Source of the DNA: an uncultured bacterium
GTDB taxonomy: Bacteria; Patescibacteriota; Gracilibacteria; UBA1369; PNNO01
NCBI GenBank assembly: GCA_963704705.1
Contig: OY969931.1
Location: 60,001-92,000 of the forward strand
DNA: 32,000 nucleotides
Direction of reading: 5' to 3'
A program made the position numbers and the translations under genes. Under the pieces are notes generated by a model. The model saw only the letters and a program-made list of their open reading frames with translations. It was not told the DNA's origin and searched no databases. Of the stretch, positions 2,966 through 27,851 are shown one piece after another. Each line of letters opens with the position of its first letter. Within the stretch, counting starts at the first letter, position 1.

Positions 2966-3512
2966 TATTATTTCCAAAATTACAAATCAATTTGATGTTT
3001 TCAGAATTGATGGCAGAGAAGGCGAAGGGAAGCCTAAAATTCCGGGCAAAATAATAAATGTATTTAAAAATAATATGGGTTTTCAATATTCTTCAATAGA
3101 AGTTTATAAAGATGGCAAAATTTATACAGGAAAAGGAGAATTGACAGACCTTTCTGGCTTAAAAAAACAAATACAAGATGGATGGATAGTCCTAAGATTA
3201 CCCGATAAATGTAAATTAAACATGTATCCATTCGGACAATATGAAATTTCAAGTTCGAATAATTTTATAATGGAAGCAGATTTTATTAAACAAGTTGAAG
3301 ATACAATTAGAATTTTGAATAAAAAACCCACATCTGCTAATATTTGTAGAGATTTATATATTGAATATGTTAATAATCCCTCAGAAGAATTAGAAAATAA
3401 ATTAAAAGTGGCATACTTCAATGTGCCTGAACATAAACGGCAGTTTATTTTAGGCGATATGGACGCAAAAGACGGGCCAATTAAAAAAATTCTTGGACTT
3501 AATAATAGATAA
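2952..3512 (+). CDS. Candidate cognate immunity protein for the ART-like RHS tip (no recognisable family)
   Basis: The 186-aa ORF starts 14 nt before the toxin stop (ATG 2952, toxin TAA 2963-2965). This is the classic translationally coupled toxin-immunity layout. No signal peptide or known domain was recognised. Confidence 0.55.
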   Translation: MTMINIISKITNQFDVFRIDGREGEGKPKIPGKIINVFKNNMGFQYSSIEVYKDGKIYTGKGELTDLSGLKKQIQDGWIVLRLPDKCKLNMYPFGQYEISSSNNFIMEADFIKQVEDTIRILNKKPTSANICRDLYIEYVNNPSEELENKLKVAYFNVPEHKRQFILGDMDAKDGPIKKILGLNNR

Positions 3513-3576
3513 GGCTTAAGTGGTTTTAATAAACCAAATTACCTAGTAAGTTCAAACACTCTCGCTCTTTGTTAAC

Positions 3577-9868: not shown

Positions 9869-10273
9869 TTACGCGGCATTTTTATCAGACTGCAACATTC
9901 CAAAGGTATTTCCTTCTGTATCCTGGACAACAGCATTCCATCCAATCCCTTTTATCGGCATTTTAGGCATTAAAACAGTACCTCCAAGCTCTTCAAGTTT
10001 TGCCAGATATTTATCAATATCCTCAACTGAAATATAATTTATTATTCCTGTGCTTGGATTTTCCTGCTTCATCATACCGCCATTTATACCCCGCCCCTTA
10101 ACCATATTGTTTTCATCAACAGGCAAAGTATAAACCATTCTGTAATCTTCAAATCCAGGAGCAGATTTTATGTCCCATCCAAATAATTGTTTATAAAAAT
10201 TAGTCGCCCTTTCCATATCACTTGCGGGAATCTCGAAGTGAACGGGCGAATGTAAGGGTTCTTGAGGATTCAT
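9869..10273 (-). CDS. VOC (glyoxalase/bleomycin-resistance/dioxygenase) family protein
   Basis: HFEIPASDMERATNFYKQLFGWDI is a typical VOC N-terminal beta-alpha-beta motif. I prefer the internal start MNPQEPL (ATG at 10273) because the track start at 10327 runs into the tRNA terminator region. Confidence 0.75.
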   Translation of the reverse strand: MNPQEPLHSPVHFEIPASDMERATNFYKQLFGWDIKSAPGFEDYRMVYTLPVDENNMVKGRGINGGMMKQENPSTGIINYISVEDIDKYLAKLEELGGTVLMPKMPIKGIGWNAVVQDTEGNTFGMLQSDKNAA

Positions 10274-10361: not shown

Positions 10362-10454
10362 TGGCGGAGAGGGGGGGATTCGAACCCCCGCGGCAACATA
10401 AGTCACCCTACAAGATTAGCAATCCCGCCTCTTCAGCCACTTGAGTACCTCTCC
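10362..10454 (-). tRNA. tRNA-Ser (anticodon GCU), type II with a long variable arm and encoded CCA
   Basis: Folded by hand from the reverse complement. Acceptor GGAGAGG/CCUCUCC; D arm CUC-AAGUGGCUGAA-GAG; anticodon stem CGGGA/UCUUG with loop UUGCUAA. The variable arm is about 21 nt with GGUGAC/GUUGCC pairing. T arm GGGGG-UUCGAAU-CCCCC; discriminator G; CCA. Confidence 0.9.
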
Positions 10455-25098: not shown

Positions 25099-25166
25099 TT
25101 TATAAATTTTGAAATAAATCAATTATGTTATATCATACTTTTAAAGTAACTTTTAACGTATTTTCT

Positions 25167-25409
25167 ATGTGCAACATTAAGAATCCATTTTTGCGACTTC
25201 TTATTTATGGGTTAGGAGCTGCTATTGTTGGAATTGTTGGGGGTTTCGTGTTGGGACTTGGAATTTGGGGACTACAATCAATAGTTTGTTTAATTGATGG
25301 GAATGCCAATTGTAGCGGTATGATAAATGCTGCCACTTTTATGGGAAGCGGCGCAGGTGCTGTTATTGGTGCTGTTTTTGGAGGAATTACTGCTTTGAAG
25401 AAAAAATAA
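25167..25409 (+). CDS. Small glycine-zipper membrane protein (hypothetical)
   Basis: Two hydrophobic Gly-rich segments: GLGAAIVGIVGGFVLGLGIWG and GSGAGAVIGAVFGGITAL. I prefer the internal Met at 25167 because the track start at 25125 is only 26 nt from the divergent guaA. Confidence 0.45.
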   Translation: MCNIKNPFLRLLIYGLGAAIVGIVGGFVLGLGIWGLQSIVCLIDGNANCSGMINAATFMGSGAGAVIGAVFGGITALKKK

Positions 25410-25427
25410 ATCACTTAGTGATCTTGG

Positions 25428-25458
25428 ATCACTCGGTAATCCTACATTACCGAGTGAT
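25428..25458 (+). terminator. 12-bp-stem hairpin plus T-run: intrinsic-terminator-like and also a REP-like element 5' of the RAYT gene
   Basis: ATCACTCGGTAA (25428-25439), loop TCCTACA, TTACCGAGTGAT (25447-25458), then TTTTTTT. The arm CCGAGTGAT is the same half-site found in the downstream 18-bp array. Confidence 0.5.
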
Positions 25459-25510
25459 TTTTTTATATTTATTTAATAAAAATTTAATTTTTTTATGCAA
25501 AAATGTCCTC

Positions 25511-25933
25511 ATGAGAAAACCATCATTGAAGACAAATACGGCTTACCACATTTATAATCGAGGTGTTTCAAAAATGAAAATTTTTAAATCAGATGCAGAT
25601 TATAAATATTTTCTATACATTCTCTCGAAGTATAAGAAAAAATATGAAATTGAAGTTATTACTGCCTGCCCGATGCCAAATCACTTCCATTTGTTGATAC
25701 GCTCGGAATTTGACTATAAAAAGATTCCAAAATTTATGAAAGATTTGCAGGTCTCTTACTCTTGTTATTTTAATCGTACCTATAGACATAAAGGGCATGT
25801 CTTCGAGGGATCATATAGGCATAAAGAGATAAATTCTATCGAATATTTAGCGCAAATTATTGACTATATAGCACAAAATCCTGTGAAAGATAGACTAGTA
25901 AAAAAATCACAGGATTGGCCCTACTTAATATAA
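25511..25933 (+). CDS. IS200/IS605-type Y1 HUH transposase-like protein (REP-associated tyrosine transposase, RAYT-like)
   Basis: AYHIYNRG...IF, the HUH motif in CPMPNHFHLLI, FNRTYRHKGHVFEGSYRHKEI, and the Tyr context IIDYIAQNPVKDRLV...DWPY. I prefer the start MRKPSLK (25511) because the track's N-terminal 31 aa are read through the hairpin. Confidence 0.8.
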   Translation: MRKPSLKTNTAYHIYNRGVSKMKIFKSDADYKYFLYILSKYKKKYEIEVITACPMPNHFHLLIRSEFDYKKIPKFMKDLQVSYSCYFNRTYRHKGHVFEGSYRHKEINSIEYLAQIIDYIAQNPVKDRLVKKSQDWPYLI

Positions 25934-26184
25934 ATCACTTAGTGATCGTTAATCACCGAGTGATCGTTAATCACCGAGTGATCGTTAATCACCGAGTGAT
26001 CCGCAATCACCGAGTGATCCGCAATCACCGAGTGATCCGCAATCACCGAGTGATCCGCAATCACCGAGTGATCCGCAATCACCGAGTGATCCGCAATCAC
26101 CGAGTGATCCGCAATCACCGAGTGATCCGCAATCACCGAGTGATCCGCAATCACCGAGTGATCCGCAATCACTTAGTGATTCTC
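25933..26184. repeat. Tandem array of 14 x 18-bp units, each with a 13-nt palindrome ATCAC-NNN-GTGAT (mini-hairpin/REP-like)
   Basis: Counted directly. Unit 1 is AATCACTTAGTGATCGTT. Units 2-3 are AATCACCGAGTGATCGTT. Units 4-13 are ten identical copies of AATCACCGAGTGATCCGC. Unit 14 is AATCACTTAGTGATTCTC. There are no spacers between units. Confidence 0.97.
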
Positions 26185-27851
26185 TGAACCAAAGTAATCT
26201 CTTTCGGCTCTGGCTCTATTGAATTTCCGTGTAGGTCTGAGCCGTTTTTTATTGTGAGTTTGTAGAATTCTTCGGGTTGCAAAGTCATACCTTCAGTTTC
26301 GATTGTAAGATCGCGAAAATTAACCTGTGCATTTTTTATTTTAATTGTGTCATGATGTTCTTTATCTTTTTCATCCATGTCTTCGATCATTAAATTCAAG
26401 CTGTCTGCGATTTTTGGGTCGATTCTTTCATTAAACACAACCATTATTTTGTTGAGGTCTGTGATTTCGGAATAGGCTATCCGTGGGCCGATACGGTCAG
26501 GCAAAGCACGTAAATCCAAAGAAACATCCCGAACTAAACCACCTTCCCATATCCCGAAATTTTCACGGCTTTCAAAATCATCAGAATAAATAATCATGCC
26601 TTGCGGGCCTTCAACAATTATCGAGTAATTATCAGAATCAGTTCCTGCCTGTTTTGGAATATCAATGTGATATCGATCGTTTTTAAAAATAGAAGAAGGA
26701 ATTTCATAGTTAAATTCAAAGCTTTTTCGGTCACCCGGATTTAACTTAACGATTTTTCCAAAAACCGTATAGTCAGAAAGATTTTCAACATGGATATCCG
26801 GATCCGGATTTTTAAGTGTTGCGCCTTTTGGTGCATATACACGTAAATATCCGCTATATGCTCCGCTAATTGGCACATTGTAGTCGCCAAAGTGTTCCAT
26901 TGTTACAGTTGTTTTTGCTGTCAAAGTATAGTTATCCTGGCTGTTTTCAAAAATTTCCAGACGATAATCCACATCACGACTTATGTATCTGTCGGATTTC
27001 ATTCCAGCCAGATTTGATTCAACAACCGCAAGAAAATCACCGGTTGTTTTTGGCCATGTACCGCTCCATCCTTTTTCACGAATCGCATTTTGAAGTGATG
27101 TATTGAAAAAGTGGAACTGAATTTGCTTTTCGTTTAAGTTGCGCACGATCATATCACTGATTTCACGCCATTTTAAAGGCGAAAACAAACTTTTTTTAAT
27201 CAGTTCTTTTGCAAGTGGTCCAAGAATATTTTTACGTTCGCTTACCTGTTCAACATTATGATAATCAATATTATGCAGACTGTATTCCAAAAGTTCAAAA
27301 ACATTTCCCGAAGTGAATTCATAATCCCAAACCTTAACTTTGCCTAAAATTTCCAGCAAATCCTGAAGATTTTTTAAATTTATTGCAATAACTCCGTCAA
27401 AGTTAGTGTCACTATCAGTCAAACGATATAAGCGCATAAGCTCGCTTACACTCTGCGGAAAATCAGGGTACCAATTGGCATCCCTAAAAGTATAACCCTG
27501 GTAAAATTGGCCGTCCAAAAGCTCTTTTTGAGGATATGGCGGATCAATATATTCATGGTCGGCAATATCACCAAACACATCTTTTACTTCAATTCCATTA
27601 AAGAATCCATTTTTAAATTTTGCGATTCCGTAAGCAGAAATAAAGCCTCCTGTAGGCCTGAGCTCATTATCATTCTGAAACAAAACCAAGTAATTTTTTT
27701 CACTAAATGGGCCGCCCGCTATATCAAAATATCTTGGCATAAAAAACCGCAAACCGCTTAGGGAAGACAAAATATATAAAAAGAAAAACAACACTACAAA
27801 TAAAGCGATATATAGGTAAAGCCTGAATTTCCTTTTTCCGATTTTACTCAT
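26169..27851 (-). CDS. DUF4012-family membrane-anchored protein with C-terminal Ig-like region
   Basis: N-terminal TM helix followed by YLVLFQNDNELRPTGGFISAYG, the hallmark DUF4012 motif. The last five codons and the TGA stop lie inside the final unit of the 18-bp array. Confidence 0.8.
   Translation of the reverse strand: MSKIGKRKFRLYLYIALFVVLFFFLYILSSLSGLRFFMPRYFDIAGGPFSEKNYLVLFQNDNELRPTGGFISAYGIAKFKNGFFNGIEVKDVFGDIADHEYIDPPYPQKELLDGQFYQGYTFRDANWYPDFPQSVSELMRLYRLTDSDTNFDGVIAINLKNLQDLLEILGKVKVWDYEFTSGNVFELLEYSLHNIDYHNVEQVSERKNILGPLAKELIKKSLFSPLKWREISDMIVRNLNEKQIQFHFFNTSLQNAIREKGWSGTWPKTTGDFLAVVESNLAGMKSDRYISRDVDYRLEIFENSQDNYTLTAKTTVTMEHFGDYNVPISGAYSGYLRVYAPKGATLKNPDPDIHVENLSDYTVFGKIVKLNPGDRKSFEFNYEIPSSIFKNDRYHIDIPKQAGTDSDNYSIIVEGPQGMIIYSDDFESRENFGIWEGGLVRDVSLDLRALPDRIGPRIAYSEITDLNKIMVVFNERIDPKIADSLNLMIEDMDEKDKEHHDTIKIKNAQVNFRDLTIETEGMTLQPEEFYKLTIKNGSDLHGNSIEPEPKEITLVQRITK

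Follow-up and report, generated by a model that had tools for sequence, protein, structure and literature searches.

The motif Y-x3-NP is the signature of class 2 of the TnpAY1 (single-tyrosine, Y1) transposases, which contains the enzymes associated with repetitive extragenic palindromic sequences (REPs), and IS200 proper is characterised by Y-x3-Q (PMC6006769). In Escherichia coli, the bacterial interspersed mosaic elements (BIMEs) of type 2 form multiple tandem copies, the number of which varies between strains; strand transfer by TnpA-REP can assemble tandem copies in vitro, and explicit published models attribute BIME-2 amplification to this activity of the enzyme (PMC3333891). Tandem-reiterated REP clusters and head-tail dimers have also been described (PMC3733652), and subclasses 2.6 and 3 are listed with atypical structures that lack the GT[AG]G foot (PMC6006769). 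Here, we analyse 32,000 nucleotides of DNA from an uncultured bacterium of the Patescibacteriota (Gracilibacteria; assembly GCA_963704705.1, contig OY969931.1, positions 60,001 to 92,000; this whole stretch is hereafter the window), in which a gene for a 140-amino-acid (aa) Y1 protein of the HUH (histidine-hydrophobic-histidine) type, resembling the REP-associated tyrosine transposases (RAYTs), lies between clusters of a 13-nt palindrome.

To our knowledge, the recognition of REPs, their spread and their matching to RAYTs are still argued over, and nearly all of the work has been on Proteobacteria. The ultra-small genomes of Patescibacteria are usually considered to be repeat-poor, and a literature search found no paper linking a RAYT, or a REP doublet forming a hairpin (REPIN), with this group. 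We conclude that the window probably contains a REPtron-like locus, that is, a single-copy, vertically inherited and domesticated gene of the RAYT/TnpA-REP type of Y1 HUH enzymes, flanked by its own cognate palindromes.

Results

The protein matched PF01797 (Y1_Tnp, IS200-like) with an E value of 5.6e-13, in a single domain spanning residues 8-123, and it contains both the HUH motif and a catalytic tyrosine in the Y-x3-NP context. The initial annotation, made from the sequence alone, had described a solitary RAYT-like Y1 HUH gene, and both the domain match and the motifs agree with it. In an alignment of 19 family members of about 140 aa, which contained no large gaps, the residues H58, H60, Y119, N123 and P124 were invariant, and the family carries the motif GHVFE or GHVFQ, with F-Q/E in place of W-Q. 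The best, and the only significant, NCBIfam model was the equivalog NF047646 (REP_Tyr_transpos), whereas the NCBIfam model transpos_IS200 had no match for the window protein (P0008 scored 18 bits, versus a cut-off of 55).

The best sequence match in the Protein Data Bank by profile search was the E. coli TnpA-REP protein 4er8 (E 3.7e-8). This was also the best Foldseek match of the AlphaFold2 model of the window protein (pLDDT 94, pTM 0.87; core fold only), with a TM-score of 0.75 and a root-mean-square deviation of 3.0 over 143 columns, compared with TM-scores of 0.58-0.64 for IS200-family TnpA. We identified 46,903 relatives among 1.84 billion cluster representatives; only about 15 of the top clusters are equally short, and most remaining relatives have C-terminal extensions. 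The assignment of the gene to the RAYT class is thus supported by its catalytic motifs, its predicted fold and the arrangement of its flanks.

The flanks are built from one repeat module, consisting of a 13-nt palindrome and a 5-nt spacer (Table 1). Tandem Repeats Finder, applied to the whole window, reported a single array, at 25933-26180, with a period of 18, 13.8 copies, 96% matches and a score of 405, and counting the units gave 14 contiguous 18-bp units at 25934-26180, on the 3' side of the RAYT gene. The pattern ATCAC-N3-GTGAT occurs 15 times in the window versus 0.02 expected, and all of these copies abut the RAYT gene, one upstream and 14 downstream. The relaxed pattern ATYAC-N3-GTRAT occurs 17 times versus 0.13 expected, the two additional copies (25428-25440 and 25446-25458) being the arms of the upstream hairpin, ATCACTCGGTAAT and ATTACCGAGTGAT. 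These arms are units lying 18 bp apart, the first of them 18 bp after the unit at 25410, and they share the 18-bp register of the downstream array, which brings the count to three units upstream of the gene and 14 downstream.

The upstream hairpin is two adjacent units that happen to be exact complements, and the asymmetry between the flanks is one of number and not of kind. Two claims of the initial annotation were confirmed, the 14 contiguous units downstream and the 18-mer ATAAATCACTTAGTGATC both before and after the gene, each copy opening with the TAA that terminates the gene before it. Two others need correction, as the annotation had given the hairpin a 12-bp stem, where the stem is a perfect 13 bp, and had treated the long-stem hairpin and the mini-hairpin units as two different things.

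The upstream cluster starts immediately 3' of the TAA stop codon of an open reading frame (ORF) at 25125-25409. The arms of the hairpin are 100% complementary in an inverted-repeat search, and its DNA fold has a free energy of -15.4 kcal/mol (z -7.3). Together with the T-run that follows, which is also found after the upstream cluster in the related loci L002, L003 and L153, the hairpin has the form of an intrinsic terminator and was called terminator-like by a simple scan. A TTA-centred unit caps the array at each end. A scan of the whole window with Rfam found nothing at the array, the sole match being a tRNA at 10365-10454 on the minus strand.

Table 1. Features of the RAYT locus in the window.
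Feature	Position	Strand	Description
18-mer ATAAATCACTTAGTGATC, copy 1	25406..25423	+	stop codon, then first upstream unit
Upstream cluster of three units, 18-bp spacing	25410..25458		ATCAC-TTA-GTGAT / CTTGG / ATCAC-TCG-GTAAT / CCTAC / ATTAC-CGA-GTGAT
Upstream hairpin, units 2 and 3	25426..25470	+	perfect 13-bp stem (15 pairs with G-T), 5-nt loop, then T-run
TGCAAAAAT, extended -10-like box	25496..25504	+	ends 6 nt before the ATG; read by eye
RAYT gene, 140-aa minimal class-2 Y1 HUH protein	25511..25933	+	RAYT / TnpA-REP type; NHFH (H58, H60), Y119-IAQ-NP
18-mer ATAAATCACTTAGTGATC, copy 2	25930..25947	+	RAYT stop codon, then first array unit
Array block 1, three units with spacer CGTTA	25934..25987		one ATCAC-TTA-GTGAT, two ATCAC-CGA-GTGAT; begins at the next base after the RAYT stop
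Array block 2, ten identical ATCAC-CGA-GTGAT + CCGCA	25988..26167		amplified part; unit centres oriented like that of the upstream hairpin's 3' arm
Terminal unit ATCAC-TTA-GTGAT	26168..26180		end of the convergent DUF4012 gene, with its last codons and its TGA stop (26169-26171, minus strand)
DUF4012 gene, convergent	26169..27851	-	context only; 3' end inside the last array unit

We compared the window with the loci L002-L005, L148-L151, L153 and L154, which are from Patescibacteria wherever the organism is named (Table 2). In all ten of these related loci the gene has cognate units with lineage-specific arms on both sides, with one to three units per side in the close relatives of about 140 aa. 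The three-unit upstream layout of the window is also present at the L002 orthologue and the L003 homologue. The doublets of the GTAC type (L148, L151, L153 and L154) are palindromes of 28-32 nt, perfect or nearly so, and two paralogues within one assembly, L149 and L150, each keep their own motif. Across eleven related loci, the arms change with the protein lineage, from ATCAC to ATTAC, GGTAC, TTTAC and TATAT, and the palindromes therefore belong to the gene, as initially proposed. The flanking repeats thus appear to co-vary with the RAYT protein, as is known for RAYTs and REPs. Relatives that lack such flanks had been named as the observation that would speak against this proposal; instead, the relatives do carry cognate units on both sides. 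The initial annotation had further regarded the locus as a departure from the usual RAYT architecture, but cognate palindromes on both sides are the REPtron arrangement.

Table 2. Flanking palindromes of RAYT genes in related loci.
Locus	RAYT identity	Units per side	Arms	Period	Remarks
L002	86%	3+3	mixed ATTAC/ATCAC	18 bp	orthologue; DUF4012 ~80% identical, same guaA and DUF4012 neighbours
L003	~61%	3+3	ATTAC	18 bp
L004	~61%	two or three	ATTAC	18 bp
L005	~61%	2+2	ATTAC	18 bp	exact-motif units; further degenerate copies downstream
L148	51-58% (group range)	2+1	GGTAC	17 bp
L151	51-58% (group range)	2+2	GGTAC	17 bp
L153	51-58% (group range)	2 upstream	AGTAC/TGTAC variants	17 bp	degenerate copies downstream
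L154	51-58% (group range)	1+1	AGTAC/TGTAC variants	17 bp
L149	50%	2+2	TTTAC-YNR-GTAAA
L150	46%	3+2	TATAT-CSG-ATATA

Other homologues have other palindromes. A paralogue, P0013 (L001 2046-2474), is recorded on a contig with the same length as that of the window (1,374,545 bp), is 54% identical to the window RAYT, forms a single-member sequence cluster and has different flanks, with another 13-bp-stem hairpin upstream (TCGTCGCACGAAC/GTTCGTGCGACGA, L001 1928-1994) and a 3' end that overlaps a convergent peptidase M16 gene, leaving no space downstream. The hairpin sequence TCGTCGCACGAAC of this paralogue has no copies in the window. Relatives identified by a protein-based scan of metagenomes are at most 47% identical, and the longer homologues in this set have classic REP hairpins with stems of about 12 bp on both sides, the sequence of which is specific to each locus; the ATYAC motif lies beside the gene in none of these metagenome relatives, the sole exact match being a singlet in L068, 1.1 kb from the gene. 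One metagenomic contig (L100 6855-10381) holds three divergent RAYT homologues within 3.5 kb, which are 28-35% identical to the query.

Gene order around the RAYT gene is kept between the window and L002, and among L003, L004, L005 and L151, and the RAYT gene of L153 lies in a different genomic context. The loci L003, L005, L148 and L151 are syntenic, with identities of about 85% for SmpB, 79-87% for PGM and 67-76% for the RAYT, and have different arms at orthologous sites. Replacement or conversion of the repeat population therefore appears to have kept pace with changes in the enzyme; ATTAC and GGTAC arms occur in syntenic genomes with RAYTs that share about 75% identity, and the ATTAC-type enzyme P0005 and the GGTAC-type enzyme P0008 are 76% identical. 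In L148 (9864-10451, versus L003 9894-10536), the RAYT gene is inverted between the same neighbours, PGM and a CTP_transf_like gene, and relative to L003, L005 and L151 only the gene between the palindromic clusters is inverted.

These data bear on whether the locus is an autonomous insertion sequence (IS) of the IS200/IS605 type, with the flanking palindromes as left- and right-end hairpins of a cassette that transposes as a whole. The Y1 HUH fold is common to both (modelled TM-scores of 0.62-0.64 to the TnpA of IS608 and ISDra2), and the changed context in L153 and the inversion in place in L148 could be read as traces of movement. We nevertheless consider an IS very improbable, as the motif is YIAQNP, with N at Y+4 (Y-x3-NP) and not the Y-x3-Q of IS200 (PMC6006769), both flanks carry the same type of unit with no distinct ends, identical copies are absent from the record, the paralogue is divergent and differently flanked, and synteny is kept in both groups of genomes. 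The neighbours in the window moreover include no tnpB, in agreement with the initial annotation, which had noted neither tnpB nor any other IS partner.

We additionally identified clusters of units away from the RAYT gene in relatives. In L003, L005 and L148, doublets or triplets are present at 4-6 intergenic sites within 16 kb: triplets occupy four consecutive intergenic gaps in L003, as also in L004, L005 has five clusters, and L148 has six sites in 16 kb. Triplets at different sites have a common template (unit, CCWGG, unit, CNCAC, unit), which suggests that the composite, rather than the single unit, is what spreads.

One junction between two conserved, convergent genes appears to document such an event. 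In L003 and L004, two stop codons lie 1 nt apart at this junction (...AAGTAATTTAGAA...), and L005 has exactly 31 extra bases there, amounting to one doublet (L003 13585-13615, L005 13661-13713); doublets of the GTAC type are found at the same junction in L151 and L148. The L005 doublet sits 3' of a GTAA and itself ends in GTAA, a tetranucleotide that could mark a cleavage or target site, or alternatively a deletion between 4-nt direct repeats.

We scanned 185,579 species-representative genomes for a two-unit pattern and obtained 62 matches; the array of the window was not among them, as the collection does not contain the source genome. Three Patescibacteria genomes gave matches, two with doublets or triplets and one with a single doublet, mostly in intergenic positions and with no RAYT within the 8-kb locus. 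Most of the 62 matches were rejected as unrelated, being repeats in collagen-like coding sequence, tandem repeats of 18 bp in Bradyrhizobium, Nitrososphaerota and Spirochaetia, or hairpins expected by chance. In L011 and L021, the clusters fall within long stop-to-stop frames and are possibly coding repeats, not elements. The DUF4012 gene of L002 contains an exact unit (1787-1799, encoding DNYSVI), which was discarded as a coincidence; the window has a one-mismatch version there. The window contains two one-mismatch units, within the chance expectation of 1.3. A solitary one at 3538-3550 (AA-ATTACCTAGTAAG) is intergenic, after a gene that ends at 3512, and may be a decayed copy, although the count is within chance.

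Among the unrelated repeats, six Bradyrhizobium species (L009, L017, L019, L020, L045 and L056; for example, L017 3528-3612) have short arrays with the same palindrome and period, consisting of ATCAC-N3-GTGAT plus 5 nt in 2-4 exact units bordered by partial copies; the surrounding DNA is GC-rich, and the 8-kb locus contains no RAYT homologue. Two metagenome-assembled genomes of Nitrososphaerota (L013 1707-1845 and L044 6096-6216) have 7-8 copies of ATCACCTGGTAATACTCA, which are unrelated repeats, and one metagenome-assembled genome (RFVF01; L050 and L051) contains long collagen-type, coding-like repeats (GATCACAAGGTAATACTG), also unrelated.

The occurrence of 18-bp repeats with ATCAC-N3-GTGAT in unrelated genomes, with no RAYT nearby, shows how chance adjacency might arise, the array then being an ordinary minisatellite, or the remnant of a coding repeat, that came to lie beside a RAYT gene; frames that are open through the array on both strands could be taken to favour this. 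However, a coding array was rejected, as it is the period, a multiple of three, that alone keeps these frames open. The same palindrome is present on the other side of the gene, and matching units flank the gene on either side in the orthologue and in nine other relatives, their arms varying with the protein. We therefore regard chance adjacency as barely conceivable.

The length of the array sets the window apart from its relatives. Each of the 21 other ATYAC-type clusters of at least two units holds only two or three, the GTAC-, TTTAC- and TATAT-type clusters of relatives are equally short, and the orthologous site in L002 has three units versus 14 in the window. Because ten of the 14 units are 100% identical, and only three units are present at the orthologous site and two or three elsewhere, the array appears to be a recent, lineage-specific expansion in which one 18-bp unit from the 3' cluster was multiplied, and not a conserved device.

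The initial annotation had offered three explanations for the array. Given the short clusters elsewhere and the three units of the orthologue, a store of enzyme substrate and an operator or iteron array are both unlikely as conserved functions, and the remaining one, slippage or repeated HUH cleavage and ligation, is the best reading. Of these processes, we favour as most likely, by a modest margin, replication slippage promoted by hairpins, or unequal exchange, since the presence of the enzyme elsewhere gave no long arrays. Enzyme-catalysed addition of units, by analogy with the models for BIME-2, comes second and is possible though less favoured. The annotation had also taken REPs to be dispersed as singlets or doublets, and this needs amending in view of the tandem clusters already described (PMC3333891, PMC3733652).

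The copy number might itself be an artefact of assembly, inflated or collapsed by reads shorter than the 248-bp array, which is perfectly regular, exceeds a typical short read and is known from one sequence on record (1 member, 1 contig). Internal landmarks, in the form of two sub-blocks with different spacers and distinct terminal units, and a contig of 1.37 Mb that looks like a finished genome make this improbable; were it true, the number alone would change, and the nature of the locus would not.

The units are under sequence constraint. The centre is Y-N-R in all 54 of 54 distinct ATYAC-type units, found with a search pattern that left the centre free, and AA lies directly 5' of 18 of 22 clusters, often as part of a TAA stop codon. 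Two adjacent units can, from their predicted pairing, form a REP-like hairpin with a 13-bp stem. Single-strand folds are strong (z -4 to -8) but degenerate in register, and the formation of hairpins, mini or long, is plausible, short of proof from covariation.

Several observations weigh against a REPtron-like locus. Positions 6 and 8 within the unit are Watson-Crick pairs in 23 cases, G-T pairs in 16 and mismatches in 15, with no excess over chance; the centres of neighbouring units form a Watson-Crick pair at the central position in 10 of 34 cases, no better than chance; and the twelve amplified units all point in the same direction and pair with each other at only 10 of 13 positions. Pairing beyond the 5-bp arms is thus not demonstrably selected, and the constraint could act on the sequence of duplex DNA. 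Neither GTAG nor GTGG is present at the foot of the hairpin at 25426-25460 or of the array units (ATYAC-YNR-GTRAT). The C-terminal tail present in most relatives is missing from the window protein. The protein also scores below the NF047646 cut-off (67.2 versus 80 bits; relatives score 69.5-79.5), so it is a relative of the modelled REP_Tyr_transpos family and not a member at equivalog level. Finally, the hallmark of REPs, dispersal in high copy number, is not demonstrated for the source genome by the 32-kb window and the 12.5-kb paralogue locus L001, as the window has no copy of ATYAC-N3-GTRAT away from the RAYT gene and L001 has no palindrome of the window type.

Constraint on duplex DNA would be expected if the 13-bp palindromes were operator or iteron sites for a dimeric protein, either the RAYT or a host factor, with the clusters serving in autoregulation or insulation and the array as a titration sink. 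The half-sites are constrained (ATYAC-Y / R-GTRAT, 54 of 54) with no excess of base pairing, the 17-18-bp spacing is strict while the spacer sequence varies, and in every relative one cluster precedes the start codon by about 50 bp. This explanation is nonetheless unlikely. The same clusters are found in intergenic positions that have nothing to do with the RAYT promoter, the 140-aa protein consists of the HUH core and carries no additional domain for DNA binding, the length of the array is not kept among relatives, and a period of 18 bp does not correspond to an integral number of helical turns. The solved relatives 4er8, 2vjv and 2xm3 bind single-stranded hairpins, which also counts against duplex operators.

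The RAYT gene lies among genes for GMP synthase (guaA), a 94-aa glycine-rich ORF product, a DUF4012 protein, LysRS (lysS) and DnaB (dnaB). The DUF4012 protein ends in ...QRITK* in the window and in ...QRITE* in L002, in both cases with its stop codon in the last unit (L002 1338-1350); this unit has therefore belonged to the 3' end of the DUF4012 gene since before the two lineages split. The 94-aa ORF (25125-25409), which encodes a membrane-like product, is interrupted by stop codons and much shortened in L002 (about 700-790), and may not be a real or conserved gene.

Upstream of the RAYT start codon, we noted the extended -10-like box TGCAAAAAT, for which relatives have TGCGATAAT or TGCGATGTT, equally close to the ATG; in most family members a TGCGATAAT-like box ends 6-10 nt before the RAYT start (L003 ~9984-9992, with equivalents in L005, L148 and L151). 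A simple promoter scan did not call the TGCAAAAAT box. Its position suggests a putative promoter from which the transcript would have little or no leader. For the RAYT gene, the recorded product has 119 aa, from the internal methionine of MKIFKSD. Because the close homologues are all 140 aa long and start with MRKP..., the start in the public record is probably mis-annotated, and we favour the ATG at 25511.

Discussion

In the clade of RAYTs of about 140 aa, the cognate element appears to be modular, a 13-nt unit (5-nt arm, Y-N-R, 5-nt arm) with a spacer of 4-5 nt being arranged in clusters of one to three units. We propose that the enzyme would recognise these units on transiently single-stranded DNA and, using Tyr119, would cut and rejoin them in the way that E. 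coli TnpA-REP processes REP and BIME sequences. Cutting and rejoining would keep the units matched to the enzyme, and doublets or triplets would occasionally be moved to nearby sites just after stop codons. The upstream hairpin with its T-run, and perhaps also the array between the convergent genes, may in addition act as transcription terminators.

A more far-reaching proposal would make the clade of RAYTs of about 140 aa a distinct subclass, with phased 13-nt modules that are cut at their GTRA end, 18-nt units that are added and removed singly, sites after stop codons that are re-seeded, and arms that switch together with the enzyme. We consider this doubtful. If it were true, the 14-unit array would be a direct footprint of HUH-catalysed tandem amplification, the turnover of units would let a repeat population switch its arms (ATTAC to GGTAC) with few changes in the enzyme, and the clade would hold the smallest natural REP-mobilising system, complete with natural variants in specificity.

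As a REPtron-like locus, this one rests on established concepts, since the REPtron, co-evolving repeats and tandem amplification have all been described. What is unusual is the repeat module, a phased 13-nt self-palindrome, and the minimal RAYT. A system of the REP/RAYT type would thus be maintained in the ultra-small genomes of Patescibacteria, with units that sit on stop codons and look like terminators. The clade offers a very small system for study, with a 140-aa enzyme lacking an accessory tail and an 18-nt repeating unit, and related syntenic genomes with different arms at the same intergenic sites allow direct tests of what determines specificity and of how the repeats turn over. The switching of arms at orthologous sites, together with a clean insertion or excision polymorphism, is attractive for experiments.

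Comparison with known systems

The window protein is similar to the transposases of the IS200/IS605 family (IS608 and ISDra2) in its modelled fold and presumably in its catalytic chemistry, and the GTAA-bounded 31-bp doublet of L005 resembles an insertion 3' of a tetranucleotide with seamless excision. It differs in having Y-x3-NP in place of Y-x3-Q, and in the lack of multiple identical copies on record, of tnpB and of distinct ends.

The TIRtrons, with their terminal inverted repeat-associated tyrosine transposases (TIRYTs; TnpAY1 subclass 2.1; PMC3733652, PMC6006769), have the motifs NH[YF]H and F-Q/E, which correspond to NHFH and VFE/VFQ in the window family. Their repeats can likewise be wholly self-complementary and clustered at short distances, as in the Stenotrophomonas maltophilia ORF 1152 family (PMC3733652), and have low to moderate copy numbers. 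In contrast, the median length in subclass 2.1 is 238 aa, and these proteins possess a C-terminal helix-turn-helix-like domain, whereas the window protein consists of the 140-aa core only, and the GGGGWSAS motif common in their terminal repeats is absent here; the likeness is one of motifs, apart from any phylogenetic placement.

As in the REPIN-RAYT systems of Pseudomonas (PMC3116915, PMC5581495), the mobile unit appears to be a small composite, here of two or three palindromes, composites at different sites have common types of spacer (CCWGG, then CNCAC), and the RAYT appears to be single-copy, vertically inherited and co-evolving with its repeats. Unlike REPINs, the composites keep a fixed phase of 17-18 bp with no long spacer, the copy number is far lower, and the hosts have ultra-small genomes of about 1 Mb.

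The differences from the E. coli REPtron (TnpA-REP 4er8; PMC3333891, PMC3479197) lie in the protein, which has 140 aa and no C-terminal tail, and in the repeats, as the units have no GT[AG]G foot, each is a 13-nt self-palindrome instead of an imperfect hairpin of 20-40 nt, the twelve internal units of the window all have the same CGA-centred orientation in place of the alternating REP and iREP of BIME-2, and relatives of the window locus have a handful of copies per tens of kb in place of hundreds per genome. Yet TnpA-REP is the best match of the window protein in both sequence and predicted fold, and both loci have a Y1 HUH gene, apparently single-copy here as well, the Y-x3-NP motif and cognate palindromes on both sides. 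As with BIME-2, copy number differs between related genomes (14 in the window versus three in L002), and copies within a locus are near-identical (ten being identical in the window). We thus regard the locus as a compact, minimal form of the known REP/RAYT system, and not as a new kind of element.

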